Source: an uncultured Anaerolineales bacterium (GTDB lineage Bacteria > Chloroflexota > Anaerolineae > B4-G1). Taken from it: a DNA stretch of 32,152 nucleotides. The stretch's first letter is position 1; each line of letters begins with the position of its first letter. Positions 6,400 through 32,152 of the stretch are shown here, in pieces. The position numbers and the translations under genes were made by a program. Under the pieces are notes generated by a model. That model was not told the origin of the DNA. It was given only the letters and a program-made list of their open reading frames with translations, and did not search any database. The stretch covers positions 191 to 32,342 of the forward strand of contig CAZYSK010000067.1 in NCBI GenBank assembly GCA_964649415.1. Direction: 5' to 3'.

Positions 6400-6625
6400 A
6401 CAAGAGGGCAGGAGGCAGGAAGCAGGAAGCAGGAGGCAAGGGACAGGGATGAAAGACAGCGCGCCATCGGAATGGCGCCGTCTGATAATGGATGGCGCGC
6501 CATCGGAATGACGCCGCCTGATGGGGGATAGTGCGCCATCGGAATGACGCCGCCTGATGGGGGATAGTGCGCCATCGGAATCGCGCCGTCTGATGATGGA
6601 TGGTGCGCCACTGGTCAGAATGGCA
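6400..6625. repeat. Purine-rich GGCAGGAGGCAGGAAGCAGGA tract followed by four tandem ~37-bp family-1 units (GCGCCATCGGAATG(A/G)CGCCGCCTGATGGGGGATAGT)
   Basis: The array is directly visible and lies immediately upstream of the GH-like gene. The units degenerate toward the 3' end. Confidence 0.85.
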
Positions 6626-17229: not shown

Positions 17230-18732
17230 TTACACTTGATGGATGAGGATGGGCGACAGCCACGTGGTATCGTTGCGATCAATGGACAATTCGCACCTTG
17301 CATGCCAAAGCGCAACTTCTGGTCTGCCCTGGTCCAGCAGGGACTTATAGAAGGCCAGGGCCAATCGCCGAGCGCCGTCGTCGGATACAGGCCAGCGATA
17401 GCCCACCACCGAGGGCACACCGGCCTGGGCGACTGCATCGGCCAATCCGAGGAAGTCATCATCGAGCAGAGCAACCTTTCCACCCGACGCTGTGCCGTAG
17501 CAACTGCTCAGATAGACGAGGCGCACCCCCGATTGCCCAAGTAGCAGCCTGACTTCGGTCGCCCGCATAGGCACGATGCCCCCTTGCTTGTCCGCCTCAG
17601 CCCAGAAGTAGAGGCTACTTTCTTCGGGAGAGTCGGCCTCATAGGAACCATGCCCTGCATAATGTACCACGTCGTAGTTCTGTGCCTTCAACTCTGCTCT
17701 GACGCGTTCGTATGTGGCTTGTTCCGTGGCGATGAGCTTCACGTCAACCGGGATACGATCCTGGCCTTTCAAATAACTGGATAGCTCTTGTGCCTCGGCA
17801 TCAGCCCCATCAATCGGAGGCAGAGTCTTCGAAGTCGTGTTCGACGCGATGATCAGCACGCGCAGTTCTTTCGTCAGTGCCAGCACGCGAGGCGAGATCG
17901 CTTCGCGCTTTGGGGTAGCCTCACACACAAACCGGGCAAGCGGATGCTGAAGCACCAGGTATTCCTGAGGGGCATCCGAGTACATGAACTCCATTGGAAG
18001 ACACACATACTCCCTGGGAGTCTCAAATTGCAGCGAGAGCAACTGGCTGCTGGCACGGGCCGTCAGATAGGTCTCTTTGGCCTCGGGTTGCTCACCGAAT
18101 ACGTCACGCCATAGGTCGCGACCGATCTGCTCGACCTGCAAACGCAGGTTGTTCCAGTCTTGCCTGGCAACTTCGGTCCTCCTCGCATATCGCTCGACGT
18201 CTAGCACCAGCGCCCTGCCCGACCGCCGGGAGCAAACGTGATAGCCACGCGATCTTATCGCCAAGTGCTGCCTTGCCACAAGAGACAGGGACAGCCTGGA
18301 TTCATCGCCGAAATTCTTAAGCTGTGGTTCTCTTGGCTCGTCGCATATCCCCGGCCTGTCTCTCGTCTCCGCGATGATCTCCAAGACTTGTTTGACCACA
18401 TCTGGCGTCTTCTCGACGAATTGCTCTACCCCAAGATACCGAATCGCGCGGACGATTTGCTTGGCCCTCACATAGCGCGTTAGCAAGATGACGTGGACCT
18501 TCGGATCCAGAGCGCGGAAAGCCATCGCCAGACTCGAACCACTTTCGTCCTCCTCGCCACCTTCGTGCAGACGTACATCAATGAGCGCAAAATCGAAGGG
18601 CTCCTGTATGACCGCGTCCAGTGCCTGTCCCTCATTGGATGCCACCCGCACGGTATGCCCCTCATCGGAGAGCCGCCCGCGCAATGTATCCCGGAAGTCA
18701 GGCTCATCGTCTACTACCAGTATCTTGTACAT
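17230..18732 (-). CDS. Response regulator with N-terminal REC and C-terminal CHAT (caspase-like) protease domain. The start is MYKIL at 18732 with a GAGGGGG RBS. The ORF extends to 18834.
   Basis: The REC domain reads ILVVDDEPD...LIDVRLHEGGEEDESG...ILLT...K. The CHAT His/Cys dyad context is VVHYAGHG and RLVYLSSCYGT, with the typical ~400-aa CHAT layout. Confidence 0.75.
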   Translation of the reverse strand: MYKILVVDDEPDFRDTLRGRLSDEGHTVRVASNEGQALDAVIQEPFDFALIDVRLHEGGEEDESGSSLAMAFRALDPKVHVILLTRYVRAKQIVRAIRYLGVEQFVEKTPDVVKQVLEIIAETRDRPGICDEPREPQLKNFGDESRLSLSLVARQHLAIRSRGYHVCSRRSGRALVLDVERYARRTEVARQDWNNLRLQVEQIGRDLWRDVFGEQPEAKETYLTARASSQLLSLQFETPREYVCLPMEFMYSDAPQEYLVLQHPLARFVCEATPKREAISPRVLALTKELRVLIIASNTTSKTLPPIDGADAEAQELSSYLKGQDRIPVDVKLIATEQATYERVRAELKAQNYDVVHYAGHGSYEADSPEESSLYFWAEADKQGGIVPMRATEVRLLLGQSGVRLVYLSSCYGTASGGKVALLDDDFLGLADAVAQAGVPSVVGYRWPVSDDGARRLALAFYKSLLDQGRPEVALWHARCELSIDRNDTTWLSPILIHQV

Positions 18733-18797
18733 CGCTACGCCCCCTCGCGCCATCGCCTGCGACTGTGGAAAAGGATCACCGGACAAGCCACTCAGAC

Positions 18798-19688
18798 TCA
18801 CTCGACTGCGTCCCACCTCTCCCGTATGTAGCACATGGCCGCCCTAACATCCAGGTTCCGCGTCGAATTGCCCATACGCACCCAGAACTCGTGAGAGTCA
18901 CCCTTGCCCAAGAAAACCGGCCTTGGGCTTTCGTCAATGGAGACGGCGCAGATGCGCTTGCCATCCATCAACTCGAAACGTGGGTGGATATACAGCACGT
19001 ATTCCGCACCCAAATTGACCTGGACAATATCGGTCAGCAACAGTTGGAATCCGTCGATATCTGACTTGCGCAGGGTCTGCAAGTCTCTTTCAATACCCAG
19101 TATCGTGCCATCGTCAGCGACGCCAAGGAGCAGATGCCCGCCCCCGCAATTCAGCATCCCGGCTATCGCCCTGGCAATCTCCTCCTGCAATCTCTTGTTG
19201 ACTCTGTTCTGCCTGTAGTCCCAACGAATACTGGACTTAAACTCCACCCGGTCATTCTCACCCTGGGCGATCAATTCGACGACATCTGGGGCCGCGCATT
19301 CAACCGCGCGCTTCACATATCCCGGCAATTGACTCACTTCGGATTTCTCCAGGAAGCCAAAGGCTGGCGCAACCCCGTCGTGGTCCGGTTGGAGGGCCTC
19401 ACGCACCATCTTGACGTCCGCGTAGCCGGTCAAGATGATGATAGCCACGCTGGGGTCCTTCTCTCTGATCTCGTGCATGAGCACAAGGCCGTCGCGGTTT
19501 TCTTCGTCAGCCTCGTCCAGGCGGACGTCCAGGACTGCGACGTGAAAACGCTCGGCATCCACCATGTGCAGAGCTTCGGCTCTGCTGGACGCCAAGCGTA
19601 CGTCGTAACCATCGTCTGACAGAAGACCCGACAGCGTCACGCGCACGTCGGGCAGATCATCCACGACAAGAACGCGCCCTCTGTGCAC
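18798..19688 (-). CDS. Response regulator with N-terminal REC and C-terminal AlbA_2 (Schlafen-like) domain. The start is GTG.
   Basis: The REC domain reads VLVVDDLPD...VLDVRLDEADEENRDG...IILTGY...EKS. The C-terminal segment ENDRVEFKSS...AIAGMLNCGGGHLLLGVADDGTILGI...FWVRMGNSTRNL matches the AlbA_2 / Schlafen core. It lies 24 nt downstream of the preceding REC gene. Confidence 0.7.
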   Translation of the reverse strand: MHRGRVLVVDDLPDVRVTLSGLLSDDGYDVRLASSRAEALHMVDAERFHVAVLDVRLDEADEENRDGLVLMHEIREKDPSVAIIILTGYADVKMVREALQPDHDGVAPAFGFLEKSEVSQLPGYVKRAVECAAPDVVELIAQGENDRVEFKSSIRWDYRQNRVNKRLQEEIARAIAGMLNCGGGHLLLGVADDGTILGIERDLQTLRKSDIDGFQLLLTDIVQVNLGAEYVLYIHPRFELMDGKRICAVSIDESPRPVFLGKGDSHEFWVRMGNSTRNLDVRAAMCYIRERWDAVE

Positions 19689-19712
19689 CAGACTCCGCCT
19701 ACCCCCTCTGCC

Positions 19713-20114
19713 CTACCGCGCTAGTACTTCCCCCACAACCCGCACCAGATCCTCAGTTTCTGTCTTGGGGATATAGTTGGCCACAAGTCGCTGGCCCTGT
19801 GCATCCGGTTCCATCGCCCGACGCATTATATCAGATGTACCATAGCCCGTGATCATTACGACTCGGATTGCAGGCCAGCGGTGCCTGATCTCGGCTGCCA
19901 GATCCAGTCCCTCAGTGTTACCTTCGTCCGTCTCGTCCAGTCGCACGTCCAGCAGCGCTAGATCAAAATGACCAGTCCCAAGCAATTCCAGCGCCCTCTC
20001 CTGAGACCCGGCGCACTGGACGTCATATCCTGCGTCCTCCAGCAAGCCACTGAGCGTCGCGCGCCAGTCGGGCAGGTCATCCACTACCAAGACTCTGTTA
20101 GGTCCATCTGTCAT
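19713..20114 (-). CDS. Stand-alone CheY-like response regulator (REC only)
   Basis: The domain reads VLVVDDLPD...LLDVRLDETDEGNTEGL...VMITGY...IPKT. It shares the DVRL(D/H)E-acidic insertion with the REC domains of the CHAT and AlbA_2 proteins. It overlaps the upstream gene by 4 nt. Confidence 0.8.
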   Translation of the reverse strand: MTDGPNRVLVVDDLPDWRATLSGLLEDAGYDVQCAGSQERALELLGTGHFDLALLDVRLDETDEGNTEGLDLAAEIRHRWPAIRVVMITGYGTSDIMRRAMEPDAQGQRLVANYIPKTETEDLVRVVGEVLAR

Positions 20115-20503
20115 TGTCCCCCTCCTTCGCGGTTATCATGACGTCGATGCCCTATCGCGGCGGACGAGGGAATAATACCCTCGACGTGCTCAACCAGGTC
20201 CCGGTCACCGAAGGATTTGGCGAAATAGCGCTTGGCCCCCAGCCGGTAAGCCGCCAGGGCCTCCTCAGTCGTGGGCTGGACGGTCGTCACCACGACCCGC
20301 TTATCGGCGTATTTCTCGGCGATGATCTCAAGCACGTCCAGGCGGCGGGAACTCGCGATGACCAGATCGAACTGGTTCGCCTCAAGCTCGGTGATGGCAG
20401 TCTCCTTGTCAGGCGCGACGACTATCTCGAACTGGTTCAAGTCGTTCTTGGCGAACTCTATCCAGCAAGGTTCATCGTCGATGATCAGAATGCGCGTTCT
20501 CAT
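20111..20503 (-). CDS. Atypical (pseudo-)receiver domain protein that apparently lacks the phospho-acceptor Asp
   Basis: The REC fold is recognisable: ILIIDDEP in beta1, VVVTTV carrying the Thr, and YFAKSF carrying the Lys. Beta3 reads FDLVIASS, so the acceptor Asp position holds Ala. It overlaps both the HK stop and the next REC gene by 4 nt. Confidence 0.65.
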   Translation of the reverse strand: MRTRILIIDDEPCWIEFAKNDLNQFEIVVAPDKETAITELEANQFDLVIASSRRLDVLEIIAEKYADKRVVVTTVQPTTEEALAAYRLGAKRYFAKSFGDRDLVEHVEGIIPSSAAIGHRRHDNREGGGQ

Positions 20504-23500
20504 CGCGACACCTCCCCTCCTGCCCCTGGCGCTGGGATATGAACCAGCATGGTCGTTCCCGTGGAGTCGCTGCGCTCTATTTTAACATCACCGCCCAGAC
20601 TTTGCAACATCAGGCTGTTCAACCACAACCCCAGCCCGCTCCCCCCTCTCGGCTCCTTGGAAGGGACGGGCTTGGCGAACAGGCGTTGCTGAACTCTGGA
20701 TGGAATGCCTGGCCCCGTATCCCGAACGCGCACGCAGATGCTGCCGTCCGTCAGACGGCTGGCAACAGTCAACCGACCGCCGTCCTCCATCGCACGATAG
20801 GCATTGTCAGCCAGGTTGCGAAAGACCTCGGAGACCTGCCCAATGGGGGCCTGGATCTGCGGAATGGAGTCGTCCAGGTCCAGAGTAACCGCTATCGCCG
20901 AACGAACCGGGTCGGCTTGCCATCGCTCTCTCGTCCTGCCCACCACGTCATTCAGCACGGCATTGACGTCCACCGCCTGAACCTCGATCTCCCGCAGCGG
21001 CTCCTGGATGCGCGCGATGATCTCCGAGGTATAGCGGGCGTTGCGCTCGATGATGTCGAGGATCTCGGCGATGGTTTCGTCCGCGACGTCCACGCGCTTG
21101 CGCAGGCGCGTCACGTTGGGGACGATGATGTTGAAGGTGTTGTTGATGCGGTGCCGCAGCGCCGCCATTGCGGTGCCCAGCGTCGCCAGTTGCTTGGCGG
21201 CGATGGCCTCGCCGCGCGCTTGCTCATACAGCCGGGCGTTGTCCAGGGCGATGGCAGCCTGGCTGGCCATGGAGAGTAGGACTTGCAGGTCCTGCTCATC
21301 GTAGGCATGTTCTCGCTCCCAATCCTGCATAGCGATCACGCCCAGCGCCCTCTCGCCTATGACCATAGGAACACCTAGCCAAGAACCTGACAAACGTCCA
21401 ATGAACTCTTGGTGTCCGGGTTGCCCATACCACGCCTCGGCCTCCGCCGACGTGCGATGCAAGATGGGTTCCTTGGTGAGGATGATCTCTTCGGTCTTGC
21501 CCCGCCTCTCCATATCCGCCTGGCGGGATTCGTAGTGTACCCGTTCTCCCTGCTCCGTCGCCAGGCCGAAGTGGATCGTGTTCGCTTCCCCATCGTACAA
21601 GGCGATGTACATGTCCTGCGCGCCCGTCAGCCTCTTCGCCTGTTCGTAGATCAGTTCCAGGATCTCGTCTTGCTTCAGGCGAATCCCCGACGTCAATGTT
21701 CTCCCCACCTCGTTGAGCGCCGCCAAGGCCTCCACGCGACGCGCCAGCTTGCGGTTGACGTCGTAGTAGAGCTCTGCGTTGTCCAGCGCGATGGCGGCCT
21801 GGCTGGCCATGGAGGAGAAGACCTGCAAGTCTCGATCATCGTAGGCATGCTCTCGCTCCCAATCCCACAGGGCGAGCACGCCCAGTACTTTCTCACCCAC
21901 CACCATCGGAACACCCAGCCAAGAGAGTGGAACTCGTCCAATGAACTCTTGGTGTCCCGGCTGCCCATACCAGGCTTCGGACTCCGCCAGGGTGCGATGC
22001 AAGATGGGTTCCCTGGTAAAGATGACCTCTTCGGTCTTGCCTCGCGTCTCCATATCCGCCGGGCGGGATTCGTATTGCACCCGTTCGCCATGCTCCGTCG
22101 CCAGGCCGAAGTGGATCTCCCCCTTTTCCTCATCGTATAAGGCGATGTACATATCCTGTGCGCCAGTCAGCCTCTTCGTCTGTTCGTAGATCAACTCCAG
22201 GATCTCGTCCTGCTTCAGGCGAATGCCGGACGTCAGTGTCTGCCCAACCCCATTAAGCACCTGCATAGCATCGCTAAACGCCTGCATAGCCCCATAGGCA
22301 CGTGCGCTCTCAATGGCCACCGCGGCTGCCCCGGCAAGCGCCTCAACCAGGCGCACGTGATCCTCTGCGAATGCTCCAGCCTCCGTGCTCTCCAGGTCCA
22401 GGATCCCAATCACCCGGTCACCATAACGCAAGGGTGCCGCCAGTTCAGACTGCACCTCGGCGTACCATTCCTGGTAATACGGATCGTCCTGGACATCGCG
22501 GCAGACGTAGGTTTCTCCCGTCGCAACCACGTGCGCGCTGATGCTGTTCCCAGAGAGAGGCAGACGGGACGTGCTGCGCGTCGGTTCCTTCTCCACCGCG
22601 TTCATGGCCCCGAAGCGCAGCTCAGTGCCGTGCTCGTCCAGCAACCAGACGCCGGTGTAGGTGGCCGGGGTAAGCCGGGCCGCGTATTCCGCGATGCGCT
22701 TCAGCAAGCTTTCCAGCGGCGCCTTTCCAATGAGGGCGTATATCTCCTGGAGGACTCGAATATCGTCCACACGTTCCTGGAGCCTGGCCCGGGTCTCCTC
22801 GTACAGCTCGGTGGTGCGGAATGCCACGGCCGCTTGCGCCGCCAGGGCCTCTGCCAGGTGCTGGTCGGCCTCGCTGAAGGCGTTCAGCCGGCTGCTTTCG
22901 GCATTGAGCACGCCGACCAGCCTATCGCCCGCCAGCATCGGAACGTCCAACTCCGACCGGGTGGCCTCCACGTGACACTTGTACCGGGGATCCTGCGACA
23001 CATCCGTGACGCGCACCGGCTCGCGCGTCTGGGCTGCGGTGCCGATCAATCCCTCACCCAGATCGATGCTCCTGTCGGGAGACTTGCCCATCGCGTACCT
23101 GAATTCCAGGCTTCCGGTTCCCGGATCGAACACGCTGATGGACCCAAACTCGCAATTCAGGAGTTCTAGGGACCGCTCCAACGTCCGCTGCAGCAATTTG
23201 TCTCTGTCCAGCACGGAGGTGATGTCACGTGCGATATCTTGAAGCGTCTCGCGTTGCTGGAATAGCTGAGCGTTGCGAATGGCGACCGCCGCCTGGTTGG
23301 CGAACAACTGGATCAGTTCCTGCTGTTCCGCCGGGAACCCTTGTGGTGTGCGGTAGTTGACGAACAAGATACCCACCGCCTCGTCGCCGACCAGCAACGG
23401 AATCGCGGCCGTGGAGGCGATCTGCTCCCTGAAGATGAAGCGCCGCTCCGGCATGCCCTCTCGGGCGATTTTGAAGGGGGCCGAAAGAAGCGGTTCATGC

Positions 23501-25281
23501 TGCGCGTCCGCAGCGAAGAGGGGGCGACTCAACGTAAGGACCTGCATCGCCACGTCGTCAGGCAGGATTTTCTTGGACGGCTTGACTTCCACCAGCATTC
23601 TTCCTCCAGAGACGTGATCAGCGACGCGATCCCGTCTGCCTGGACTGTAGCGATACAGCTCAACCAGATCAGCGCCTAACACACCCCTGGCCTGTTGTGC
23701 AATCTGCTGCAGCAGATCCTCAAGACTTTCCCCCGTCACCTCGACGGTGCTCAGACGCTGCCCCACCTTGTTCAGCGCTTCTAGCGCCTGGATCCGCCTC
23801 TGGATCTGCTCATACACGCGGGCGTTGTGGATCGCCATGGCCGCCTGGTTGGCAAGCAGTTCGATGACCCTCCGTTGATCAGGTGGAAACTCCTGGCGGG
23901 TCCGGTAGTTGACGAACATGACACCTACGGTCTCGCCAGCGGCCTTGAGCGGCACGGAAGCCGAAGACAGGACCCCCTCGCGCACGACGAAGCGCCGGTC
24001 CGGGCGCTCAGGACGCTCGACGGTGAACGAGCCGCTGAGCAAGCGATCAGCCTGGGCATCGCGCGTATAAAGCGGCTCGCCGCGCTTGACAACTTCTACC
24101 GCGATGTCGTCCCCGAAGATGTGCTCCTTGACGACATCGGGGACCCGCCGCTCCCCTTCCAGGATCGGCGGGAGGATGTACCGCTCCTCCCTTTCGACGT
24201 ACTGATACACGTCAACCAGGTCGGCACCCAGCACATCCCTGGCGCTCCGCGCCACGTGCTGCAATACCCTTGGCAATCCTCTCGCCGACACCTCGGCCGA
24301 TAGCAGTTCCTCCCCGATCCGATGCAACCTCTCCAGGGCCGCCGACCGGCTGGTCTCCTGCTCGATCAGCCTGGCGTTGCGCAATGCGGCCGCCGCCTGA
24401 CCTGCCAGTGTCTCCAGGAGCACCTGGTCCCGTTCGTCAAAGGCCGCCAGGCCGTCCTTGTCGGCCGAGATCACCCCGACAACCTCGTCGCCCAAGGTCT
24501 TGATGGGCACCACGAGCATTGAGCGTTCAGAGGCCTGTGAAGACCAGCCACGGACAAACCGCGGGTCATGCACCGCGTCCATGACGAGCGCCGGCTCCCC
24601 ATTCTGGGCTACCCAACCGGCCAATCCCTCCCCAATGGCAAAGCTCCTCTGCTCCACGCCCTCCGCGGACCGCGCCGCCATTTTGAGCACATCGGCGCTC
24701 TCATCCATCCGGAATATGCTGACGTGCTGGCAATCCAACACGCGCGCCGCAGACTGTGTGATATGCTCGAGCAGCCTGGGCAGTTTCAGGTCGGAGTTGA
24801 TCCAGAGGCTCACTTCGTTCAGGACCGCCAGATCCCGTATCCATCGCTGCGCGACAGCTACCTGCGCGGCCAGACCCTGGGCCAGAGCCTGCTGAGAATC
24901 GCTGAAGTCTCTAGCCTCGTACGCATAGACGTCCATGACTCCCACGACCGTGTTTTTCACCCGTAACGGCACTACCATGGCCGACTCAAGCCCCACGGCG
25001 GATGCCTCTTCCTTGAACGCCCAGCGGGCGTCCGAGGCGATGTCTTTGACTACAATCGGGCGCCCCGTCTTGAACACCTCCGACCCGACGCTGATTTCGT
25101 CCAAAGGCAGGGCCGCCGTGCGCATATAGTCACCCGGCAGGCCCTCGGATGCAACAAGGCGCAGAGCTTGCTTGACCTCATCGAGGAGCCAGATGCCGAC
25201 CGGCAACTCCAGGATCGAGCCGATTGTACCTACCAACGGTTGAAGAAACCGCTTTTCGCCAGGCCCTGTAGAGGCAGACAT
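20500..25281 (-). CDS. Soluble multi-GAF sensor histidine kinase (about 8-9 GAF domains, HisKA and HATPase_c), 1593 aa
   Basis: It has no TM helices. GAF-like units with inter-domain ALxNARLYEQ linkers recur along the protein. The C-terminal H-box is AALRHRINNTFNII. HATPase_c reads RNLADNAYRAMEDGGRLTV...VRDTGPGIP...GGSGLGLWL. A strong GGGGGGAG RBS precedes the ATG. Confidence 0.85.
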   Translation of the reverse strand: MSASTGPGEKRFLQPLVGTIGSILELPVGIWLLDEVKQALRLVASEGLPGDYMRTAALPLDEISVGSEVFKTGRPIVVKDIASDARWAFKEEASAVGLESAMVVPLRVKNTVVGVMDVYAYEARDFSDSQQALAQGLAAQVAVAQRWIRDLAVLNEVSLWINSDLKLPRLLEHITQSAARVLDCQHVSIFRMDESADVLKMAARSAEGVEQRSFAIGEGLAGWVAQNGEPALVMDAVHDPRFVRGWSSQASERSMLVVPIKTLGDEVVGVISADKDGLAAFDERDQVLLETLAGQAAAALRNARLIEQETSRSAALERLHRIGEELLSAEVSARGLPRVLQHVARSARDVLGADLVDVYQYVEREERYILPPILEGERRVPDVVKEHIFGDDIAVEVVKRGEPLYTRDAQADRLLSGSFTVERPERPDRRFVVREGVLSSASVPLKAAGETVGVMFVNYRTRQEFPPDQRRVIELLANQAAMAIHNARVYEQIQRRIQALEALNKVGQRLSTVEVTGESLEDLLQQIAQQARGVLGADLVELYRYSPGRRDRVADHVSGGRMLVEVKPSKKILPDDVAMQVLTLSRPLFAADAQHEPLLSAPFKIAREGMPERRFIFREQIASTAAIPLLVGDEAVGILFVNYRTPQGFPAEQQELIQLFANQAAVAIRNAQLFQQRETLQDIARDITSVLDRDKLLQRTLERSLELLNCEFGSISVFDPGTGSLEFRYAMGKSPDRSIDLGEGLIGTAAQTREPVRVTDVSQDPRYKCHVEATRSELDVPMLAGDRLVGVLNAESSRLNAFSEADQHLAEALAAQAAVAFRTTELYEETRARLQERVDDIRVLQEIYALIGKAPLESLLKRIAEYAARLTPATYTGVWLLDEHGTELRFGAMNAVEKEPTRSTSRLPLSGNSISAHVVATGETYVCRDVQDDPYYQEWYAEVQSELAAPLRYGDRVIGILDLESTEAGAFAEDHVRLVEALAGAAAVAIESARAYGAMQAFSDAMQVLNGVGQTLTSGIRLKQDEILELIYEQTKRLTGAQDMYIALYDEEKGEIHFGLATEHGERVQYESRPADMETRGKTEEVIFTREPILHRTLAESEAWYGQPGHQEFIGRVPLSWLGVPMVVGEKVLGVLALWDWEREHAYDDRDLQVFSSMASQAAIALDNAELYYDVNRKLARRVEALAALNEVGRTLTSGIRLKQDEILELIYEQAKRLTGAQDMYIALYDGEANTIHFGLATEQGERVHYESRQADMERRGKTEEIILTKEPILHRTSAEAEAWYGQPGHQEFIGRLSGSWLGVPMVIGERALGVIAMQDWEREHAYDEQDLQVLLSMASQAAIALDNARLYEQARGEAIAAKQLATLGTAMAALRHRINNTFNIIVPNVTRLRKRVDVADETIAEILDIIERNARYTSEIIARIQEPLREIEVQAVDVNAVLNDVVGRTRERWQADPVRSAIAVTLDLDDSIPQIQAPIGQVSEVFRNLADNAYRAMEDGGRLTVASRLTDGSICVRVRDTGPGIPSRVQQRLFAKPVPSKEPRGGSGLGLWLNSLMLQSLGGDVKIERSDSTGTTMLVHIPAPGAGGEVSR
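21236..22315. repeat. Intragenic tandem duplication: two ~540-bp (180-codon) GAF-domain units with high nucleotide identity inside the multi-GAF HK gene
   Basis: Unit 1 starts with GCGTTGTCCAGGGCGATGGC at 21236 and unit 2 with GCGTTGTCCAGCGCGATGGC at 21776, a period of 540. The encoded peptides LTSGIRLKQDEILELIYEQ(T/A)KRLTGAQDMYIALYD...GQPGHQEFIGR... are near-identical. Confidence 0.85.
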
Positions 25282-25486
25282 ATGCTACTCCCCCCCAAGT
25301 TTAGCTAGACCTAGTGCAGAATCGGTGATGTTTGCGTAAACCAATTGCTAGAGCGCCAACGGGGCCGCATTGGCGTTCACTCGGCCTGGAGAAACACCCA
25401 CGCTCTGGCTACAGATATCCCCCCAGGTTATACTCAAGCCCAGATCGTCTGGGCCAGAGCGGAACCCCCGGTCTTCGCACAGAACT

Positions 25487-26827
25487 TCAATTGCGCCGCG
25501 CTTGCCTCCAGGCATCCAATTCAGCCTGGTATTCCGCTTCTGCAAACGCCAACCCCTTTTCCCGTAGCATCATAGCTGTGAGAACGTGAGGCAGGCCCTT
25601 TCGCTTCTCCAGGAACAGGATTTGAGAACCAGTGAGCGTATGCCCACCATTATCACTCAGGAATCGGTCAAGTTGGCGTCGCCCGCGCACCACGGTTCTC
25701 ATGAAACGCTGGGACTCACCCAAGAAATAGGTCATCAAGCGCTTCTCGTCCTCCGGCGTCGCCCGCAGGGAGCGATGAACCGTCCGGGAAATACAGCCCA
25801 TCACTCCCGGCAGGAATTCCCCGGACTCGATGCCGAGGACAATTTGCCGCGTCACGATGCCCCGTATCAGTAGCTTGACGATTCTCTCCCGGCCGTTCTT
25901 GCCCGGGGGAGGAGCCCCGTCCGCGACCAGGGTATACAGTGCCTTGGAATAGTCCGCAATCACGTGCTCGCTGGCACGGACCAGTGATTCCGGCATGTGA
26001 GAGGCACGCACGAAACCATGGATCGTGTCCACAAGGGGCCGGTAGGCATCCGTCTCAAACACCGACGCAGCGCCCTGCGAAATCATGGCCACGCGCTCGG
26101 TGCCGATGACCGTCTCAGCGAAGGGCTCCGCCATCTGACGCAGAGACCTGCTCTGGGGATCGAGTTCGCGGGAGATGAAGAGGGAATTGGAGAACTCGAC
26201 AAAGCGTCCGCACTTGCAGCCCGGCCTGCAAGCCGGCCCGCAGGCCTTTTCGGCACCCAGGTCATAGAACAACTCCGTGTTCGGCCCTGCCTTGCGGGGG
26301 GTCTCCATACCGTCAATCCCGCCGCCTTGCACCCAGTAGTTGTCATCCGGTCCCAGGCCAATGACGTGATCCCCGGGCACCCCTACCTCGATCCAGGCTC
26401 GACGTGTGACCCCGTCCCCCGGCAGATGCTCGCCCAAGACCGCCCCGCCCTCAAAATAGGAGACCCAGATGCGGCTCTGATCTATGCCGAGAACAGACGT
26501 GGCCAGTGTCCACATACGCCGAATGGTTTCGGCTTTCCCGTTTGGACCAAAGACAAATGCACCGGGCATTTCGAACAAGCTCAGGTGCGTGCCGTCAGTT
26601 CCGACCTTGTCGAGATCGAAGTGGCGAAAACACTCCTGAACGAGGACGAATTGGTCGCCGGGTCTTTCGTCCACCCGGGCCAGGGAGGTCTCTATCTGAA
26701 CTAGGCCGGCACTCATCACGTAAGACATGGGAATAGATGGGTGAAGCATAGGGGCGCGGGGCAGCGGGTGAAAGCCAAGTCCTTCGTAGTAACCTACAAA
26801 GCGCCGACGGATTGCAGAAGCGTTCAT
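25487..26827 (-). CDS. Truncated, divergent alanyl-tRNA-synthetase-like protein (class II catalytic core plus tRNA-recognition domain only; no editing or C-Ala domains), 446 aa from the ATG at 26827
   Basis: Alignment to AlaRS is recognisable. N-terminal IRRRFVGYYEGLGFHPLP corresponds to IRQ.FLDFF..KGH. QECFRHFDLDKVG..THLSLFEMPGAFVFG corresponds to QRCVRAGGKHNDLENVG..HHTFFEMLGNFSFG. AGPNTELFYDLG corresponds to CGPCTEIFYD. RFVEFSNSLFI corresponds to RYIEIWNLVFMQF. LTGSQILFLEKRKGLPHVLT corresponds to the tRNA-recognition DAFKLYDTYGFPLELT. The AGGKHND ATP-binding segment is shortened. The upstream in-frame ATG at 26881 lies upstream of the predicted promoter. Confidence 0.65.
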   Translation of the reverse strand: MNASAIRRRFVGYYEGLGFHPLPRAPMLHPSIPMSYVMSAGLVQIETSLARVDERPGDQFVLVQECFRHFDLDKVGTDGTHLSLFEMPGAFVFGPNGKAETIRRMWTLATSVLGIDQSRIWVSYFEGGAVLGEHLPGDGVTRRAWIEVGVPGDHVIGLGPDDNYWVQGGGIDGMETPRKAGPNTELFYDLGAEKACGPACRPGCKCGRFVEFSNSLFISRELDPQSRSLRQMAEPFAETVIGTERVAMISQGAASVFETDAYRPLVDTIHGFVRASHMPESLVRASEHVIADYSKALYTLVADGAPPPGKNGRERIVKLLIRGIVTRQIVLGIESGEFLPGVMGCISRTVHRSLRATPEDEKRLMTYFLGESQRFMRTVVRGRRQLDRFLSDNGGHTLTGSQILFLEKRKGLPHVLTAMMLREKGLAFAEAEYQAELDAWRQARRN

Positions 26828-26861
26828 ACTGACCCCTCTCACAGCTACACGCGGAACAGAG

Positions 26862-26900
26862 GCTACAATATTGTACCACACTTATCGGGGTTATGCAACA
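26862..26900 (-). promoter_or_regulatory. Predicted sigma70-like promoter of the AlaRS-like gene: -35 TTGCAT, 17-bp spacer, extended -10 TGgTACAAT
   Basis: On the minus strand the sequence reads TTGCATAACCCCGATAAGTGTGGTACAAT. A ~35-nt 5'UTR with a GAGAGGGG RBS precedes the ATG at 26827. A second copy with TTGCAC / TATAAT is conserved at 32060..32088. Confidence 0.55.
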
Positions 26901-26996
26901 CATTCCAGTGTCCTGAGCTCAAGCGGTAACCTCGATGTGCCATTGCGCTTGCCAACGTAAACCAAGACCACCGGCACCGCGTTACCATCATCTGCC

Positions 26997-28037
26997 CTAT
27001 GCCGGCTTCAGAAGTGCGCTCACGATACCGATATCCTGCCACGTGACCGTTTCCTCCTCAGGCACGCCACCGATCACAATTGGGGCAACGGGGGGAAACT
27101 GGATCTTTCCCGTCCCCGGATCACGGACAAACCTGCCATACTCCCACTCTTTCTGATCGACGTTCCATACCACCGCGTGCCCCGTCGCCGGTGGGACAGC
27201 ACCTCGCGCCCAGGCCGCCAGGACGTAGTCCCCCTCGTTGCTGTGTGGTCCAGCCCACCGATCTCGTGGGACGCGGACTGCAAAGCTGCGAGCATCCCAC
27301 GGGAGCCACAGGTTGGTGCCAAACGGCATGCCGTCTTCCGGGTGATACAAACGGTATCTCCGCTCATCGATATCGATCTCCGAGGGGATCAAGCAGCCTC
27401 TCGGCTCCGCACGCAGGAGCCCATAGCCGTTCCCTGTGACCACGGGGATATGCACGGCTGCTGCGCCATCGACCAGCGAAAGGTCATCCGCCAGACACCG
27501 GCACAGGGCGTTGATCCAACTGAGTGCGTGCTGGCACTTGTCTATCTGCTGACTGCATTCTTGTGTTCGCGATGGGTCTCTGAAGCGATTATCCTCCCAA
27601 TACTTGATCGCTTCGCCAAAGGCCTTGATCGCACGCTGGTAATCGACCAGCGCCTTGGTCCTGGATCCTAGCGCACAGTGGAGCAAGCCCCGCAGGTACA
27701 CGACGACAGCTTCGATATGGCGCTTGTTCTGGTAGCCAGGCAGTAAGCCAAGCGCTTTGGCAGCCTCTTGACAACAGTCCAGCGCCGGTCCCCATCGATC
27801 AGTCTCTCGATACAGGTCACCCATCCAGATACAAAGGACGCTCTCACTTGCAGAATGATGACAGGCTCGCGCGAACGCGTGGGCCTCTTCAATGCATCGA
27901 ATAGCCCTATTCACGTCGCCCAGGCACCAGTACTCTGAGCATTTCATCGTGGCAGCGGAGACTACAGATGGCAGCCCATTCTCGCACACCAGTGCTCTAG
28001 GCGCCAGGTCTGGGGGCAATCCCGTGATCACAGGCAT
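26997..28037 (-). CDS. Hypothetical protein with an N-terminal Cys-rich TPR-like helical domain and a C-terminal LexA/S24-peptidase-like beta domain that lacks the catalytic Ser and Lys
   Basis: The N-terminal ~190 aa are helical with TPR-like A/L/Y periodicity. The C-terminal HIPVVTGNGYGLL...FAVRVPRDRWAG..GDYVLAAW...GHAVVWNVDQKEWEYGRF...VTWQDIGIVSALL aligns to LexA segments LPLVGRVAAGEPLL, LLRVSGMSMKDIGIMDGDLLAV, GQVVVARIDDEVTVKRL and GLAVGV, with Ser replaced by Arg and Lys by Gly. A GGAG RBS is 8 nt upstream. Confidence 0.45.
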   Translation of the reverse strand: MPVITGLPPDLAPRALVCENGLPSVVSAATMKCSEYWCLGDVNRAIRCIEEAHAFARACHHSASESVLCIWMGDLYRETDRWGPALDCCQEAAKALGLLPGYQNKRHIEAVVVYLRGLLHCALGSRTKALVDYQRAIKAFGEAIKYWEDNRFRDPSRTQECSQQIDKCQHALSWINALCRCLADDLSLVDGAAAVHIPVVTGNGYGLLRAEPRGCLIPSEIDIDERRYRLYHPEDGMPFGTNLWLPWDARSFAVRVPRDRWAGPHSNEGDYVLAAWARGAVPPATGHAVVWNVDQKEWEYGRFVRDPGTGKIQFPPVAPIVIGGVPEEETVTWQDIGIVSALLKPA

Positions 28038-28265
28038 GGTTACACTCCAGTGGCTCTATGCCGGTCTGCCAGAACACCACCAATCACCGAATAGTCCTTG
28101 ATCTCGCAAGCTCTTTCAGACTACACTGCAGAAGCATCTGCATACCGCAGCATGGCCGCGTAGCGGAGTAACTCAGATGCGCCGGTTGAGGCAGCAAGTT
28201 GATCGTGTCGCCTCCAGCGATCCAGGATCTCGGAGAGCGCCATCATCCTGCGCTGGTGGCAACTC

Positions 28266-29714
28266 TCATGCCCCTCGTATCTCTGGCAGCAGACGTCCAA
28301 GCTCGGAGCCAGCATCATCCGTGCCCGGTAGCCCATCGCCAACCAAACTATGCGTATTCGCCAGCAGTTGCTCCAATTGGCTCAGCATCCGCAGCGTCTC
28401 GGGCGGCAAGAACATACGCTTATGCGGATCGTAGGCCATCCAGCGCAAGGTCTCAGTGAAACGCATGGCCATCAGGTAGGGATGTAGTTCTTCTTCACTG
28501 CTGACAAGTGGCCGGATCGTCTCAATAAGCGTCAGCACCATCTCTGCTTGTGCCTGCACCCGCGCAGCATCCAGACGCGCTATCTCCGCCTCCCCCTCTG
28601 CCTGGTCCTCTACTGCCCTCCGTCTCCAATCGGCCTGCCAGGCTTCGACCCACTGGGCATAGATTTTCTCATCCTTTACGTCAATCTCACCCAGATCAAC
28701 GTTGAGGATCCGGGCCCCCTTGTCATTGCCCACCGAGAGTTTCTCGCGCAAGCGCTTTTCAAGACGTTCCCGGATCTCCTCACGGGGATTCCCCCGGCCT
28801 GGCCAGGGCGGCTGCATCAGCCAATCGAGACGGTAGTCAGCCAAGACCATCCGCAGGATCCCCTCAACCTCGCCAATCATCACGCGCCCCGTCCATTTCC
28901 TGGTCTGTTCCGGGTGATCCGGCTCGTGGATACGGACCCATGTGCTTGTGGCTGCGTTGAAGACCGCCTCATCCGTGTGCGCCAGCGACCTCGCCGGCAC
29001 CTCGCCCTGTTGGCCAGCGTCCCGGTCGTCAATCTTGAAAGTGATGTCAGCCTGGCAGGAAACAGGGATTCCCTCCTTCGTCATCGCCGTAACCGCAAGT
29101 GGCCAGTGCTGTTGTCGCAGGTCAATGACCTCCCAGACCCGCTCGTAGCGCTCAAGGAAGCAAAAAGCGGGGCCCAAGACCCGGCTCAGTCTTCCACCTC
29201 TCTCCAGAACCGCCGCGCTGTCACCGTGAACCACCACAAACCCTGGACCGCCGATGCGGTCACAAGTCGTGCCCGCCCCAAGCGTGATATGCCCTTCTTC
29301 CACGATCAGCAGCGGCTTGAGCGCATCCCCTGGCATGCCGAACATGCTCCGATGAGCGACACCTTGGGCCTCCTCCAGATCCTCCGTGTCGTAGAGGTCG
29401 CGGACAAAACGCGAGGCCAGGCGTGAGATAGCTATCAAAGCTATCAGCAATGGAACGGAACTGAAGAAGCTCCTGACAAGAAAGATGAAGCCGTAGCGGA
29501 TGCAGTCCTTCACCAGTCTCAGAAGACTCCCCACGTAGGACAGATCAAACGGGGCATGGAGAAACTCGATGGCGCATCCAATGAACACCACTAATAGGAT
29601 TGGCCCATGTACCGCAAACATGCGCCAGCGATGCTGACGCTTCAACCTCAGGCGCGTCGACCGCCCGCGTCCGGACAGGGCCCACCTAAGCAGATCTTCA
29701 GGCAGTGAGATCAT
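28266..29714 (-). CDS. SPFH/band-7 (stomatin/flotillin-like) domain membrane protein, 482 aa, with an N-terminal TM region
   Basis: The N-terminal hydrophobic helices are ILLVVFIGCAIEF and VPLLIALIAI. The SPFH core reads LLIVEEGHITLGAG...GPGFVVVHGDSAAV...EVIDLRQQ...VTAMTKEGIPVSCQADITFKID. A coiled-coil Ala/Glu-rich tail follows (AEGEAEIARLDAARVQAQAEM). Its ATG overlaps the upstream gene's TGA (ATGA). Confidence 0.7.
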   Translation of the reverse strand: MISLPEDLLRWALSGRGRSTRLRLKRQHRWRMFAVHGPILLVVFIGCAIEFLHAPFDLSYVGSLLRLVKDCIRYGFIFLVRSFFSSVPLLIALIAISRLASRFVRDLYDTEDLEEAQGVAHRSMFGMPGDALKPLLIVEEGHITLGAGTTCDRIGGPGFVVVHGDSAAVLERGGRLSRVLGPAFCFLERYERVWEVIDLRQQHWPLAVTAMTKEGIPVSCQADITFKIDDRDAGQQGEVPARSLAHTDEAVFNAATSTWVRIHEPDHPEQTRKWTGRVMIGEVEGILRMVLADYRLDWLMQPPWPGRGNPREEIRERLEKRLREKLSVGNDKGARILNVDLGEIDVKDEKIYAQWVEAWQADWRRRAVEDQAEGEAEIARLDAARVQAQAEMVLTLIETIRPLVSSEEELHPYLMAMRFTETLRWMAYDPHKRMFLPPETLRMLSQLEQLLANTHSLVGDGLPGTDDAGSELGRLLPEIRGA

Positions 29715-31714
29715 CTCCCCCCTACCCTCCTTTGCAGCCGCCGCATGATGCTGTCCACGTCGCCTGGAAGGAAATCGCGCAGCGCCGATCGTTGAAGCAG
29801 GCTCTCCAGCGCCTCAACGAAGTATTGTAGGATAGCATCCGTATGGACAGGGGGGGCCTCGTCCCGTATCCGCTCAATGCGTTTAGCGATATCCAGTATG
29901 ATTTCCACCTGGGCCTGTGCCCGCGCTTGTTCTACCCGACTTATTCGCACAGACTGTCCTTCTGCCCTCTGTATCGCGATTCTGCGTGCCCAATTGGCCC
30001 GCCAGGCCTCGATGCGTTTCTCGATCACGTCGTCGTCCATCGGCACCAGGTCGCTGATCCCCCCGCCCACGCGCTTGATGCCGAACTTGGGCAGTTCGGT
30101 GTCCAGTCTTTGCCGCAGTTCATCGGCGATCCGAGCACGCGGGTGTTTCCTCAAGTCTTCATATAGCTCAAAGGGCGCGTAGAGTTCGTCGAACTCGTAG
30201 TGAGAGATGATGTCGCGCACGATAGGCTCACCAACCAACTGGGGCAAGTCGTACCACTCGCACTTCGTGTTGTCTTCAGGGGTCTGGGCCAGGCACACCT
30301 GCATTGTTTCCGCAGTCACCGCCTTGTAGACATCGCTAGCACGATAGGGAAAGCCCTCGCCAAGCTGAGGCCTAGCATCGCCCGTGCTCATCTGGAATGG
30401 GACGAAAGTGACAACCCGGATGCCGATGCCGTCCTTGGTCCACGCATCAACGTGAAAGGCGCGTAACTGAACTCGCAGATCGATCACGTGCGTGGGCGTC
30501 TCGTACGCGTTCGTGAAGACAAGACCAGGCCCTCTGGCCCCTCTGATATCGGTGCTGGTGCATACGACGACGAGGTGATCGCAGCCGGTGAGGACGATAC
30601 CCGGCCCGGCCAGGAACTCCGCAAAGACGTCTCCCTCCAACCGCTGTATCAGCCGCTCCCTCGCTTCCAACCACGTTCGTGTTCCTTCAGTGCGTTCGGT
30701 GATTCGTTCGTCTACGACAACGTGGTATGGGTAGTTTGTGCCCAACGCATACGTCACAAGGCAACGGAGAGCTGTGCGATGCTGTTCGTACCACTCTCTT
30801 CGCGCTTCCCTGTTCCGTGAGCGGCGCAACAGATCAACGAAGTCAAAAATCTCATCGCAAAAGGTAGGGATGGTGCCCGCATCCCGTGGGCTACGGCTAC
30901 CTCGATACAGATCAAGCGGCGGTAAAGGCAGGAGTGAGGCAGACCTGAAGAAGAGCGTCCCCACAGGCATGAGAAGCGCTGGCAGCGTGATAAACAGCAG
31001 CCCAGACCAACCACACCGCCAGCCAATACAGACCGTGTCCCAGTAGTAGACCCACACGGCAGAAAGCATCCACCGACGGAATCTGTCATGGTTGGGTTCC
31101 AGACGGAGAGAAGGGCGAACCTGCTCAGGCGAGAAGACTACAGCGAGCAAGAAGAGGATCAATGAGCCTTCGCCGTCGAGCGCCAATGCCAGCACCAGGG
31201 CGACGAAGGCACCAAACGATGCCGGAATGAGCAAACGTCTTTCTCGCCACTTCCACGTAACCGTCTCTTTCCATCGCCATACAAGTCCCTGGGAGACCTC
31301 TACCTTGTCCCTTCTCGCGCTTTGCCTTACACAGGAAAGCCAGAAGCGGATAGGAAACAGGAGATAGGCAAGAACCAAAGCCAGCACGAGAAGGAACGCC
31401 AGGAATGCCAAGATCGCCAGTTGCGCATCGAAAGGCAGGCCGGAGGTACTCAAGAAGAGGTCGTGCAACCTTCCATGGAACCTGAAGAGGATACCAGATG
31501 CCAGCAGGAAGTACAAGAGTATGCACTTCAGGCCTGTTCGTATCCACTGAGCAGTCTGGGCTGATGCGCTTTTCCCCGAGAACCCGGCCAGCCGGAGAAA
31601 CGCACAAAGTGCCATAGCGCCCGCGCCGGCAAATGCAGCAGGCACCAACAGCAGAGCGAAGTTGCCCCAAGCATCCAGAAGGGTCTCGTCCAGAACCGCC
31701 ACGATCTCAGCCAC
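29711..31714 (-). CDS. SPFH/band-7 domain membrane protein, 667 aa, with a large polytopic N-terminal membrane region; a paralog of the downstream gene (GTG start)
   Basis: The N-terminal ~250 aa contain multiple hydrophobic helices. The SPFH core reads GPGIVLTGCDHLVVVCTSTD...VIDLRVQLRAFHVDAWTKDGIGIRVVTFVPFQ. The coiled-coil tail IEAWRANWARRIAIQRAEGQSVRISRVEQARAQAQVEIIL parallels the paralog's AQWVEAWQADWRRRAVEDQAEGEAEIARLDAARVQAQAEMVL. A GAGGTG RBS is present. Confidence 0.7.
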   Translation of the reverse strand: MAEIVAVLDETLLDAWGNFALLLVPAAFAGAGAMALCAFLRLAGFSGKSASAQTAQWIRTGLKCILLYFLLASGILFRFHGRLHDLFLSTSGLPFDAQLAILAFLAFLLVLALVLAYLLFPIRFWLSCVRQSARRDKVEVSQGLVWRWKETVTWKWRERRLLIPASFGAFVALVLALALDGEGSLILFLLAVVFSPEQVRPSLRLEPNHDRFRRWMLSAVWVYYWDTVCIGWRCGWSGLLFITLPALLMPVGTLFFRSASLLPLPPLDLYRGSRSPRDAGTIPTFCDEIFDFVDLLRRSRNREARREWYEQHRTALRCLVTYALGTNYPYHVVVDERITERTEGTRTWLEARERLIQRLEGDVFAEFLAGPGIVLTGCDHLVVVCTSTDIRGARGPGLVFTNAYETPTHVIDLRVQLRAFHVDAWTKDGIGIRVVTFVPFQMSTGDARPQLGEGFPYRASDVYKAVTAETMQVCLAQTPEDNTKCEWYDLPQLVGEPIVRDIISHYEFDELYAPFELYEDLRKHPRARIADELRQRLDTELPKFGIKRVGGGISDLVPMDDDVIEKRIEAWRANWARRIAIQRAEGQSVRISRVEQARAQAQVEIILDIAKRIERIRDEAPPVHTDAILQYFVEALESLLQRSALRDFLPGDVDSIMRRLQRRVGGR

Positions 31715-31810
31715 AGGCTAGACACCTCGTGTCAGGTTCATCAAGCCGCGAGAACACGTGGGGCCGGGCGCGTCTCACGACTTCTCGTTGTTCAGCATCT
31801 ATCGAAATGG

Positions 31811-32017
31811 CTAGGTTGAGGCTGCGATGAACAAACAAGCGGGACGGAATCGGGCCAGGCTGACGCCAGTGCAGAGCAGGAACTCGCAGGCCCAACTGAC
31901 AATACGCACACTTGCCACTGTGTTGAGGAGCGAAGTACGGGGGCATGACGGAGCGGGCACAAGCCAGGCTCTTTGAAAGCAACTCACAAAGCGCCGCCGG
32001 ATCTGCAGTGAATCCAT
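31811..32017 (-). pseudogene. Remnant of the 5' end of an AlaRS-like gene (68-codon ORF MDSLQIRRRFVSCFQRAW...), homologous to the N-terminus and 5'UTR of the gene at 26827
   Basis: MDSLQIRRRFVS is compared with MNASAIRRRFVG. Nucleotide homology of about 80% extends from the promoter through ~35 codons and then decays. An AGAGGG RBS is retained. The ORF reaches a stop 95 nt upstream of the SPFH GTG. Confidence 0.4.
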
Positions 32018-32120
32018 ACTGCCCTCTATCACGATCACGTGCAGAACAAAGACTGCACCATTATACCACACTCGCGCGGGTTGTGCAACAGATTCAGTGC
32101 GACCGTCACACATTGGGGAC
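31935..32120. repeat. Direct repeat of ~190 bp: second copy of the promoter, 5'UTR and first codons of the AlaRS-like gene (first copy at 26745..26925), flanking the SPFH-SPFH-TPR/S24 cassette
   Basis: The two regions align at about 80% identity, with ACAAAGCGCCG(A/C)CGGAT..GCAG..TCCATACTG..CACGCGGAACAGA / CACGTGCAGAACAAAGA..TATACCACAC..CGGGTTGTGCAACA.ATTCAGTG conserved. Confidence 0.7.
32052..32090 (-). promoter_or_regulatory. Predicted sigma70-like promoter (copy 2): -35 TTGCAC, 17-bp spacer, extended -10 TGgTATAAT. It may drive the remnant ORF plus the SPFH operon.
   Basis: The minus-strand sequence is TTGCACAACCCGCGCGAGTGTGGTATAAT, with the same 17-bp spacing and position as copy 1 at 26870..26898. 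Confidence 0.5.
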
Positions 32121-32152
32121 AAGCTCCTGAAAAGCCAGGCTGGGCCACTGGA

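Follow-up and report, generated by a model that had tools for sequence, protein, structure and literature searches.

Partial gene duplications that capture a promoter leave a direct repeat made up of promoter, leader and first codons, with an intact copy and a second one that is frameshifted and shortened, and the duplicate is missing from orthologous loci. A few transposable elements are also known to choose promoters as targets. In the case of TnGBS, ISLre2 and the ISKra4 group, insertion is in fixed orientation and 15-17 bp upstream of the -35 box of sigma-A promoters (PMC3942029). Here we describe a locus that combines traits of both classes, in a 32,152-nt stretch of DNA (the window) from an uncultured Anaerolineales bacterium of the Chloroflexota (GenBank assembly GCA_964649415.1, contig CAZYSK010000067.1). 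On its minus strand, a three-gene cassette, SPFH1-SPFH2-TPR, precedes a gene for a protein resembling alanyl-tRNA synthetase (AlaRS), termed here the AlaRS-like gene. The 5' region of the latter is present twice, in front of the gene itself (copy 1) and in front of the cassette (copy 2). As in the class of partial duplications, the repeat comprises a promoter, a leader and first codons, only one of its copies is intact, the second having decayed, and the duplicate is missing from orthologous loci; unlike in a plain partial duplication, an insertion sequence hides its upstream side, and the duplicate takes the place of an ancestral context with a gene for a pyridoxal phosphate (PLP) enzyme. A previous reading of the same DNA, the original prediction, had offered two explanations for the repeat, insertion of the cassette into the AlaRS-like gene or duplication of the promoter to drive the cassette. 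It was half right, as the promoter was duplicated and no cassette was inserted. We propose, with a probability of roughly 0.6, that a lineage-specific partial duplication gave the cassette a new promoter, P', upstream of which a promoter-targeting element inserted later.

Homology and decay of the two copies

Local alignment of the minus strand paired 26736..26910 with 31925..32099 over 177 columns. The alignment score of 61 compares with 10.0 ± 1.3 (maximum 16) for 500 dinucleotide shuffles. A blastn self-search of the whole window recovered the core of the repeat (26796-26910 against 31986-32099) at 75.6% identity over 119 nt, with an E-value of 4.7e-7. Identity amounts to 59/83 (71%) at positions -83 to -1 and to 64/94 (68%) for the first 92 nt of the coding sequence. 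The two copies are homologous far above chance, and the homology includes non-coding DNA. The whole repeat measures about 175 bp at about 70% identity and is not of low complexity. The original prediction had put it at about 190 bp and 80%, and had named an identity below 60% or mere low-complexity matches as grounds for giving it up. The repeat is real, shorter and more diverged than had been thought, and the outer 15-20 nt of the ranges proposed then (26911-26925 and 32100-32120) show no homology; 32100-32120 belongs to the end of a multicopy insertion sequence and not to the repeat. The repeat stretch is identical across seven contigs from JGI, ENA and Logan assemblies, so copy 2 is not the chimera of a single assembly.

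Both copies contain a -35 and a -10 element 17 nt apart together with the TG of the extended -10 pattern of sigma-A/sigma-70 promoters, followed by a leader of 42-45 nt, a Shine-Dalgarno sequence (about 26840..26833 in copy 1 and 32027..32022 in copy 2) and an ATG, all of which can be read in the sequence as had been predicted. The candidate promoters of copy 1 and copy 2 are designated P and P', respectively. They had been called identical; in the block from -35 to -10, 22 of the 29 positions match (76%). The -10 of P' is nearer to the consensus than that of P, and the -35 of copy 1 fits the consensus at just three of six positions. A consensus promoter scan of 25200..32152 returned P' as its sole match, and P was not reported. 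Orthologues of the AlaRS-like gene have a promoter of the form TTGCAx-16/17-TGnTAnnnT at the same spacing to the ATG.

Copy 1 leads into the intact AlaRS-like gene, again as predicted (Table 1). In copy 2 the coding part is decayed. A 1-nt insertion after codon 13 breaks the reading frame relative to copy 1, clear nucleotide homology stops near codon 31, and weak similarity in the shifted frame reaches about codon 50 (E 0.22). The predicted decay, which had been placed after about 35 codons, and the stop codon at 31811 are borne out. The stop lies 96 nt, and not 95 nt, ahead of the SPFH1 start codon, and the SPFH genes do follow it. The stub peptide gave no match in Pfam or NCBIfam and no tblastn match in any other fetched locus, and neither the rest of the window nor the other fetched loci contain anything significantly similar to the interval from stub to SPFH1 (31700..31930). 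Copy 2 is a frameshifted, shortened pseudogene stub of the AlaRS-like gene.

The stub also bears on annotation. Public gene calls contain a 100-aa 'hypothetical protein' at 31822..32124 (129..431 of contig L001), which begins within the end of the insertion sequence, some 30 nt ahead of the copy 2 promoter, and spans both promoter and stub. This call is almost certainly a spurious open reading frame (ORF), and it is a warning that gene callers make a protein out of a pseudogene remnant.

Table 1. Features of the locus, with positions in the window
Feature	Coordinates	Strand	Description and basis
Copy 2 of the repeat	31925..32098	-	Candidate promoter, 42-nt 5' untranslated region, Shine-Dalgarno, ATG 32017, about 31 decayed AlaRS-like codons
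Copy 1 of the repeat	26736..26910	-	Candidate promoter P, 5' untranslated region, Shine-Dalgarno, ATG 26827, first 31 codons of the intact gene
Candidate promoter P' (copy 2)	32060..32088	-	-35 TTGCAC 32088..32083, 17-nt spacer, extended -10 TGgTATAAT 32068..32060
Candidate promoter P (copy 1)	26870..26898	-	TTGCAT 26898..26893, 17-nt spacer, TGgTACAAT 26878..26870
Stub ORF, 68 codons	31811..32017	-	MDSLQIRRRFV..., out of frame from codon 14; ORF list
Insertion sequence, right end	32099..32152, runs past window end	-	Last codons of DDE transposase and TGA (...QELVPNV*), 7 terminal nt CGGTCGC
SPFH1, 667 aa	29711..31714	-	GTG start, GAGGTG 8 nt upstream; Pfam Band_7 1.2e-7, 32.4 bits
SPFH2, 482 aa	28266..29714	-	Pfam Band_7 2e-11, 44.7 bits; 4-nt overlap with SPFH1 stop
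TPR protein, 346 aa	26997..28037	-	Pfam TPR_2 4e-8; N-terminal TPR region, C-terminal beta-rich domain
AlaRS-like gene, 446 aa	25487..26827	-	Pfam tRNA-synt_2c (PF01411) 1.4e-55, 189 bits
Downstream cluster	17230..25281	-	Gene calls and Pfam; order seen in many loci
Multi-GAF histidine kinase, 1593 aa	20500..25281	-	Gene call and Pfam
Two receiver proteins, receiver-AlbA_2, receiver-CHAT	after kinase, to 17230	-	Gene calls and Pfam

The junction in related genomes

A scan of one genome per species yielded 68 loci, onto which the proteins of the window were mapped by tblastn. In L005, L006 and L065 the AlaRS-like gene is immediately preceded by SPFH1-SPFH2-TPR. L007 has both SPFH genes upstream and an unrelated 627-aa ORF in place of a recognisable TPR gene, and L040 has all three cassette genes upstream of an AlaRS-like gene stub. 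Self-blast revealed no second copy of the locus's own AlaRS-like 5' region in any of these five, and tblastn of the N-terminal peptides against all loci found just the in-situ stub of L040 and the tandem genes of L049. The latter locus has tandem AlaRS-like genes right after a GAF kinase gene (1241..2898), the second of which ends at the contig edge. The closest orthologue is 81% identical (L075-L078), and L076 also has a TPR gene upstream. The original prediction had suggested looking for an empty-site allele among related genomes; the nearest relatives have the TPR gene, or the TPR and SPFH genes, at the junction and lack the duplicate. As the cassette was already present at the TPR-AlaRS-like junction in relatives without the duplicate, its insertion into the AlaRS-like gene is effectively ruled out. 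Copy 1 can be aligned with the promoter of the 81% orthologue to -14 only and with copy 2 through -83, indicating that the duplication arose after the TPR-AlaRS-like junction and is specific to this lineage.

The form of insertion that would best explain the arrangement is a Campbell-type integration of a circle carrying the cassette and a 5' fragment, since a single crossover yields a truncated 5' copy, the insert and the intact gene, with direct repeats on both sides. The SPFH pair and the TPR gene differ in phylogenetic affinity, and the 228-nt gap between SPFH2 and TPR is the largest among the relatives compared (L005, L006, L007, L040, L065, L092 and L094), both of which could be expected of inserted DNA. 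However, the junction TPR-P-AlaRS-like is common to L005, L006, L065, L040 and L076, all without the duplicate, and is older than the duplication. The DNA between the two copies holds the SPFH, SPFH and TPR genes and no integrase, transposase or inverted repeats, and a target duplication of at least 175 bp is not known for transposons. We therefore give this origin almost no credence.

The upstream side of the cassette differs from that of its relatives. A gene for a PLP enzyme (PALP) precedes SPFH1 in L005, L006, L065, L092 and L094. No such gene is present in the 440 nt that can be seen ahead of SPFH1 in the window, which suggests that P' replaced the ancestral context. The cassette of L092 has no AlaRS-like gene immediately downstream, and none is visible in the approximately 240 nt between TPR and the contig end in L094.

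L040 offers an independent parallel to copy 2. At 5690..5904 it has an intact promoter, a leader and 33 in-frame AlaRS-like codons, followed by unrelated DNA and then the GAF kinase gene. Its stub ends (...MLHPSI) at about the same codon where strong homology between copy 1 and copy 2 stops. This locus shows that a promoter with a 33-codon stub can persist ahead of other genes.

A promoter-targeting insertion sequence at the upstream edge

The upstream limit of copy 2 was characterized by searching with a 27-nt pattern from the terminal stretch, which occurs in ten JGI contigs, each time about 12 nt from the contig end. The ten contigs are identical up to ...AATGTGTGACGGTCGC, diverge right after GGTCGC and are unrelated beyond. 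This identifies the stretch as the right end of a multicopy element that ends at 32099, exactly the point where the homology of copy 1 and copy 2 stops. The ten copies and the copy in the window are identical over the shared 120-130 nt, and this mutual identity indicates that the insertion is recent. The seven contigs with copy 2 end, at each place shown, 0-90 nt past the window end and inside the insertion sequence, and a metagenome scan past copy 2 returned other right-end junctions only. The insertion conceals how far upstream the duplication really extends.

The ORF fragment ending in QELVPNV matched short fragments only in a word-indexed search, and a profile search revealed it as the C-terminus of transposases of 818-864 aa. 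These relatives contain DDE_Tnp_IS66, IS240 (IS6), ISL3 and Mutator-type domains, none of which reaches its NCBIfam cut-off; the matches to Transposase_mut/MULE are weak (1e-4 to 1e-5), and those to IS66, IS6 and ISL3 are stronger. The models of ISLre2 and of ISKra4, the latter originating from a Chloroflexota genome, gave no match at E <= 0.01. A full-length relative of the element measures about 2.6-2.7 kb.

The -35 of P' is 10 nt and the -10 is 33 nt away from the element end, and the same geometry is found at 12 other insertion sites. Beside copies of the identical element, a TATAAT-like hexamer occurs 33-34 nt past the end in nine of ten distinct flanks (L079-L088), with a TTGxxx -35 about 10-12 nt past the end. 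Diverged relatives from other metagenomes (L090, L095, L097 and L098) follow the same pattern in 4/4 cases. Altogether, a -10-like hexamer follows the transposase stop at a distance of 37-41 nt in 13 of the 14 independent right-end flanks. The flank promoters read away from the element into ordinary-looking host genes, which on translation by eye resemble, e.g., those of an epimerase, RNase PH and a Tex-like protein. Promoter-adjacent insertion is not without precedent, being already described for TnGBS, ISLre2 and ISKra4. Similar to these elements (Guerillot et al. 2014, PMC3942029), the present one inserts in one orientation at a fixed distance upstream and leaves the promoter intact. It differs from them in an offset of 10-12 bp, as against 15-17 bp, from element end to -35, and in a transposase of 818-864 aa with best matches, below the cut-offs, to IS66, IS6 and ISL3. 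The comparison concerns the right end, from which the element is known. On this evidence the element appears to be a diverged example of the promoter-targeting DDE transposons, with a shorter offset. A promoter-seeking element would thus have treated P' as a promoter, and P' seems to look sigma-A-like to it.

The insertion sequence might itself have brought copy 2 along. Having first entered a related genome ahead of an AlaRS-like promoter, it could then, in the way of ISEcp1, have used an alternative right end within the gene and brought promoter and first codons to the present site. It adjoins copy 2 at the canonical distance, the duplicate holds exactly what lies downstream of such an insertion, and the stub of L040 ends at nearly the same codon. 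On the other hand, the element copies are identical to one another, whereas copy 1 and copy 2 differ by about 30%, which calls for a foreign donor, and the ten other insertions have no passenger, their flanks leading straight into different host genes. Transport as passenger DNA is highly improbable in our judgement.

Proposed origin and role of copy 2

Based on the two copies, the related loci and the insertion sites, we propose the following course of events. In an old duplication, to judge from the divergence of about 30%, the 5' end of the AlaRS-like gene would have been copied to about 200 nt upstream of SPFH1. The copied segment would have held a sigma-A-type extended -10 promoter, a leader of 42-45 nt with a Shine-Dalgarno sequence and the first 31-50 codons. 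The coding part has decayed to a frameshifted stub, with promoter, ribosome-binding site and ATG remaining intact. P' may now serve as the promoter of an SPFH1-SPFH2-TPR operon, whose leader would be about 340 nt long and include the 68-codon remnant ORF. P would still drive the AlaRS-like gene and probably also the GAF-kinase, response-regulator and CHAT genes that follow. The search for a terminator between TPR and P was negative, and transcription of the cassette could therefore continue into the AlaRS-like gene and those beyond. Much later, the multicopy DDE insertion sequence would have entered 10 nt upstream of the -35 of P', setting the visible upstream limit of the repeat, and the assemblies end there. 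As no other consensus promoter was found upstream of SPFH1, P' is probably the promoter that drives the cassette. The homology, the decayed stub and the lineage-specific duplicate agree with the second explanation of the original prediction, in which duplication of the promoter served to drive the cassette.

Several points weigh against this proposal. The activity of P' is read from sequence features. The promoter part exceeds the decaying coding part in conservation by little (71-76% against 68%), too small a margin to demonstrate purifying selection on P'. Upstream of about -46 all sequence has given way to the insertion sequence, whose transposase gene reads toward the cassette, so that read-through could add to or replace the activity of P'. 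In addition, the contigs end inside the insertion sequence, which makes the copy of a small segment indistinguishable from the junction of a large tandem duplication. Finally, the mosaic make-up of the cassette, with a TPR gene nearest to that of L065 and SPFH genes nearest to the L092/L006 type (55-60%), points to a possibly more complex recombination.

The same observations lend some weight to two other accounts. In one, copy 2 is a dead relic with no present role, and transcription of the cassette depends on read-through out of the insertion sequence or on a promoter in 31715..31925 that escaped recognition. The scarcely better conservation of the promoter part than of the pseudogene part would agree with this, as would the transposase gene, which points into the cassette with about 40 nt from its stop to the -10. 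However, the -35, the 17-nt spacing, the TG, the TATAAT, the Shine-Dalgarno sequence and the ATG have all survived a divergence of about 30%, no other consensus promoter precedes SPFH1, and, the insertion being recent, the cassette needed a promoter beforehand. We regard a dead copy 2 as unlikely.

The other account bears on the origin alone and leaves room for P' as the driver of the cassette. Here copy 2 marks the junction of a large tandem duplication, in which unequal recombination between a site upstream of SPFH1 and about codon 31-50 of the AlaRS-like gene doubled the block SPFH1-SPFH2-TPR-P-5' stub. The order of a stub, about 150-200 nt, SPFH1 to TPR, P and the intact gene is the product of one such duplication, tandem AlaRS-like genes exist in L049, and exchange between two copies of the cassette could explain why the affinities of the SPFH genes and the TPR gene disagree. 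One would then expect a further, diverged cassette, with a TPR gene at its end, just past the insertion sequence. However, among the SPFH1 homologues listed, the next full-length one after the window's own is 60% identical, and the sole closer match is the partial P0142 (69% identical), a conceivable paralogue from this genome. This origin is a tentative option, somewhat on the unlikely side.

The SPFH1-SPFH2-TPR cassette

The predicted identities of the cassette genes are supported in part. Band_7 was found in both SPFH proteins, each above the gathering cut-off of PF01145 (23.6 bits), and TPR repeats were detected by Pfam, whereas the S24-like label of the third protein is unsupported. The TPR protein has no S24 match in Pfam, hhalign against LexA/UmuD gave a probability of 0.1%, and the matches in a profile search of the PDB are confined to the TPR part. 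A single-sequence AlphaFold2 model of the protein has a predicted local distance difference test (pLDDT) score below 50 throughout the C-terminal domain. SPFH1 and SPFH2 share 27% identity over about 300 aa. SPFH1 has a long hydrophobic N-terminal half and a C-terminal SPFH/Band 7 domain, and homologues of 550-720 aa occur in Chloroflexota.

Similar to operons of the HflK/HflC or flotillin type, the cassette contains a pair of paralogous SPFH genes side by side, the stop codon of the first overlapping the start codon of the second, and the N-terminal region of SPFH1 is membrane-spanning as in the first gene of such pairs. In contrast to these operons, no NfeD or FtsH partner is close to the cassette, the N-terminal half of SPFH1 is polytopic and unusually long (about 300 aa), and a conserved TPR protein follows the SPFH pair. 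Assignment of the cassette to a defence system was also considered and rejected; PADLOC gave no match for SPFH1, SPFH2, the TPR protein or the AlaRS-like protein, and just weak CHAT and receiver-type matches among the downstream genes.

The genes of the cassette differ in their nearest relatives. The TPR protein is 44% identical to that of L065 and 26-29% to those of the other relatives, and the SPFH genes are 50-60% identical to the type found in L006, L007, L040, L092 and L094 and 37% to those of L065. The closest SPFH1 homologues (L092 and L094, 58-60% identical) stand in PALP-SPFH1-SPFH2-TPR blocks. By these affinities the cassette is a mosaic.

The AlaRS-like protein and the downstream cluster

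The AlaRS-like protein consists of the aminoacylation and tRNA-recognition domains only and has the class II AlaRS catalytic domain. It scored 196 bits against TIGR00344 (alaS), for which the cut-off is 457, and covers profile positions 2-425 of 847; it thus lacks the editing and C-Ala domains of the full alaS architecture. Residues 2-444 align with N-terminal fragments of AlaRS (PDB 3HXU, 1RIQ and 9JDN) with E-values of 1e-36 to 1e-41, and the E. coli AlaRS fragments (residues 1-441/461) are likewise without the editing and C-Ala domains. Three features set the protein apart from solved AlaRS structures. Its motif-2 loop is four residues shorter (QECFR----HFDL against QRCVRAGGKHNDL), ETVIG stands where AlaRS (9JDN) has the DTGMG segment of the alanine pocket, and a four-cysteine motif invariant in the family (C196, C200, C204 and C206) is inserted. 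The DTGMG segment corresponds to D235/G237 of E. coli AlaRS. The shorter loop, the ETVIG segment and the four cysteines suggest an altered substrate pocket.

The family is large, with 608 matches at E <= 1e-10 to proteins of about 446 aa. Unlike AlaRS, it is a separate conserved paralogue family encoded beside a GAF histidine kinase. The kinase gene follows the AlaRS-like gene in about 50 of the 68 loci, which span Chloroflexota, cyanobacteria, Saprospiraceae (Bacteroidota) and Thiothrix-type Gammaproteobacteria, and genes for receiver, receiver, receiver-AlbA_2 and receiver-CHAT proteins often come after the two. A literature search found no published description of this association.

Two further repeats were observed in the window. 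A direct repeat of 470 nt within the GAF kinase gene (21236..21707 against 21776..22246, 84.6% identity) is consistent with a recent duplication of a GAF-containing module. Tandem arrays of hairpin-forming units (e.g. GCGCCATCGGAATGGCGC) are present at 2825..2976, 5493..5609, 5795..5888 and 6461..6610, with periods of 36, 32, 30 and 36 nt, respectively, and 3-4 copies each; a similar array stands at the far end of contig L085. The arrays are without spacers and do not represent CRISPR.

Common control of the cassette and the AlaRS-like cluster

The original prediction took all four genes for a single functional system under common promoters. Similarity of the two copies might indeed be maintained by a common regulator or an RNA leader, with the cassette and the AlaRS-like cluster forming one regulon. 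The conserved blocks GAATnTGTTGCAyAACCC around the -35 and AGTGTGGTAyAAT around the extended -10, as well as a possible anti-Shine-Dalgarno pairing (CCUCU/AGAGG), could be read in this sense. However, the orthologues have not conserved those parts of the blocks that lie beyond the core promoter, and no shared operator was found in the two promoter regions. The leaders fold no better than shuffled sequences in RNAfold (z of +0.59 and -0.31), showing no significant structure. The RNAalifold consensus of six leader sequences has an energy of -1.4 kcal/mol with little covariation, and Rfam gave no match in the window and none in L090 and L091, which are relatives of the insertion sequence. An RNA element in the shared leader is unsupported by these three tests, and a T-box or other long leader is ruled out by the leader length of about 42-45 nt.

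Support from gene neighbourhood is patchy. The cassette lies within 10 kb of the AlaRS-like cluster in seven of about 45 informative loci, upstream in five (L005, L006, L007, L040 and L065) and downstream in two (L010 and L030). This recurrence speaks for a shared module, yet the two are more often apart than together, and the AlaRS-like cluster usually occurs without the cassette. A functional link between cassette and cluster seems possible from this distribution, whereas a shared regulatory module is quite doubtful. Equally speculative is a wider model in which the cassette and the cluster of AlaRS-like protein, multi-GAF kinase, receiver and CHAT proteins form one signalling system. The AlaRS paralogue, reduced to its core and equipped with a remodelled pocket and four cysteines, would make or sense a small-molecule or tRNA-linked signal that is read by the GAF kinase, and the promoter duplication would have been selected for common control.

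Implications

The feature is an ordinary lineage-specific partial duplication, and the repeat represents ordinary genome history in which a promoter and a gene stub were copied ahead of another operon. The AlaRS-like/GAF-kinase synteny and the insertion sequence are better leads than the repeat itself. To the few bacterial transposons that home to sigma-A promoters, the element would add a diverged lineage with a different spacing, which should be useful for working out how promoter targeting is achieved. The AlaRS-like proteins are a large and unstudied family of AlaRS paralogues that have kept the catalytic core only and are nearly always encoded upstream of a multi-GAF histidine kinase. This synteny across phyla is a clear lead to a non-translational role of the aminoacyl-tRNA-synthetase fold. 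If the cassette and the cluster do form one system, the duplication would place a membrane module under the same control as an enzyme and kinase module.

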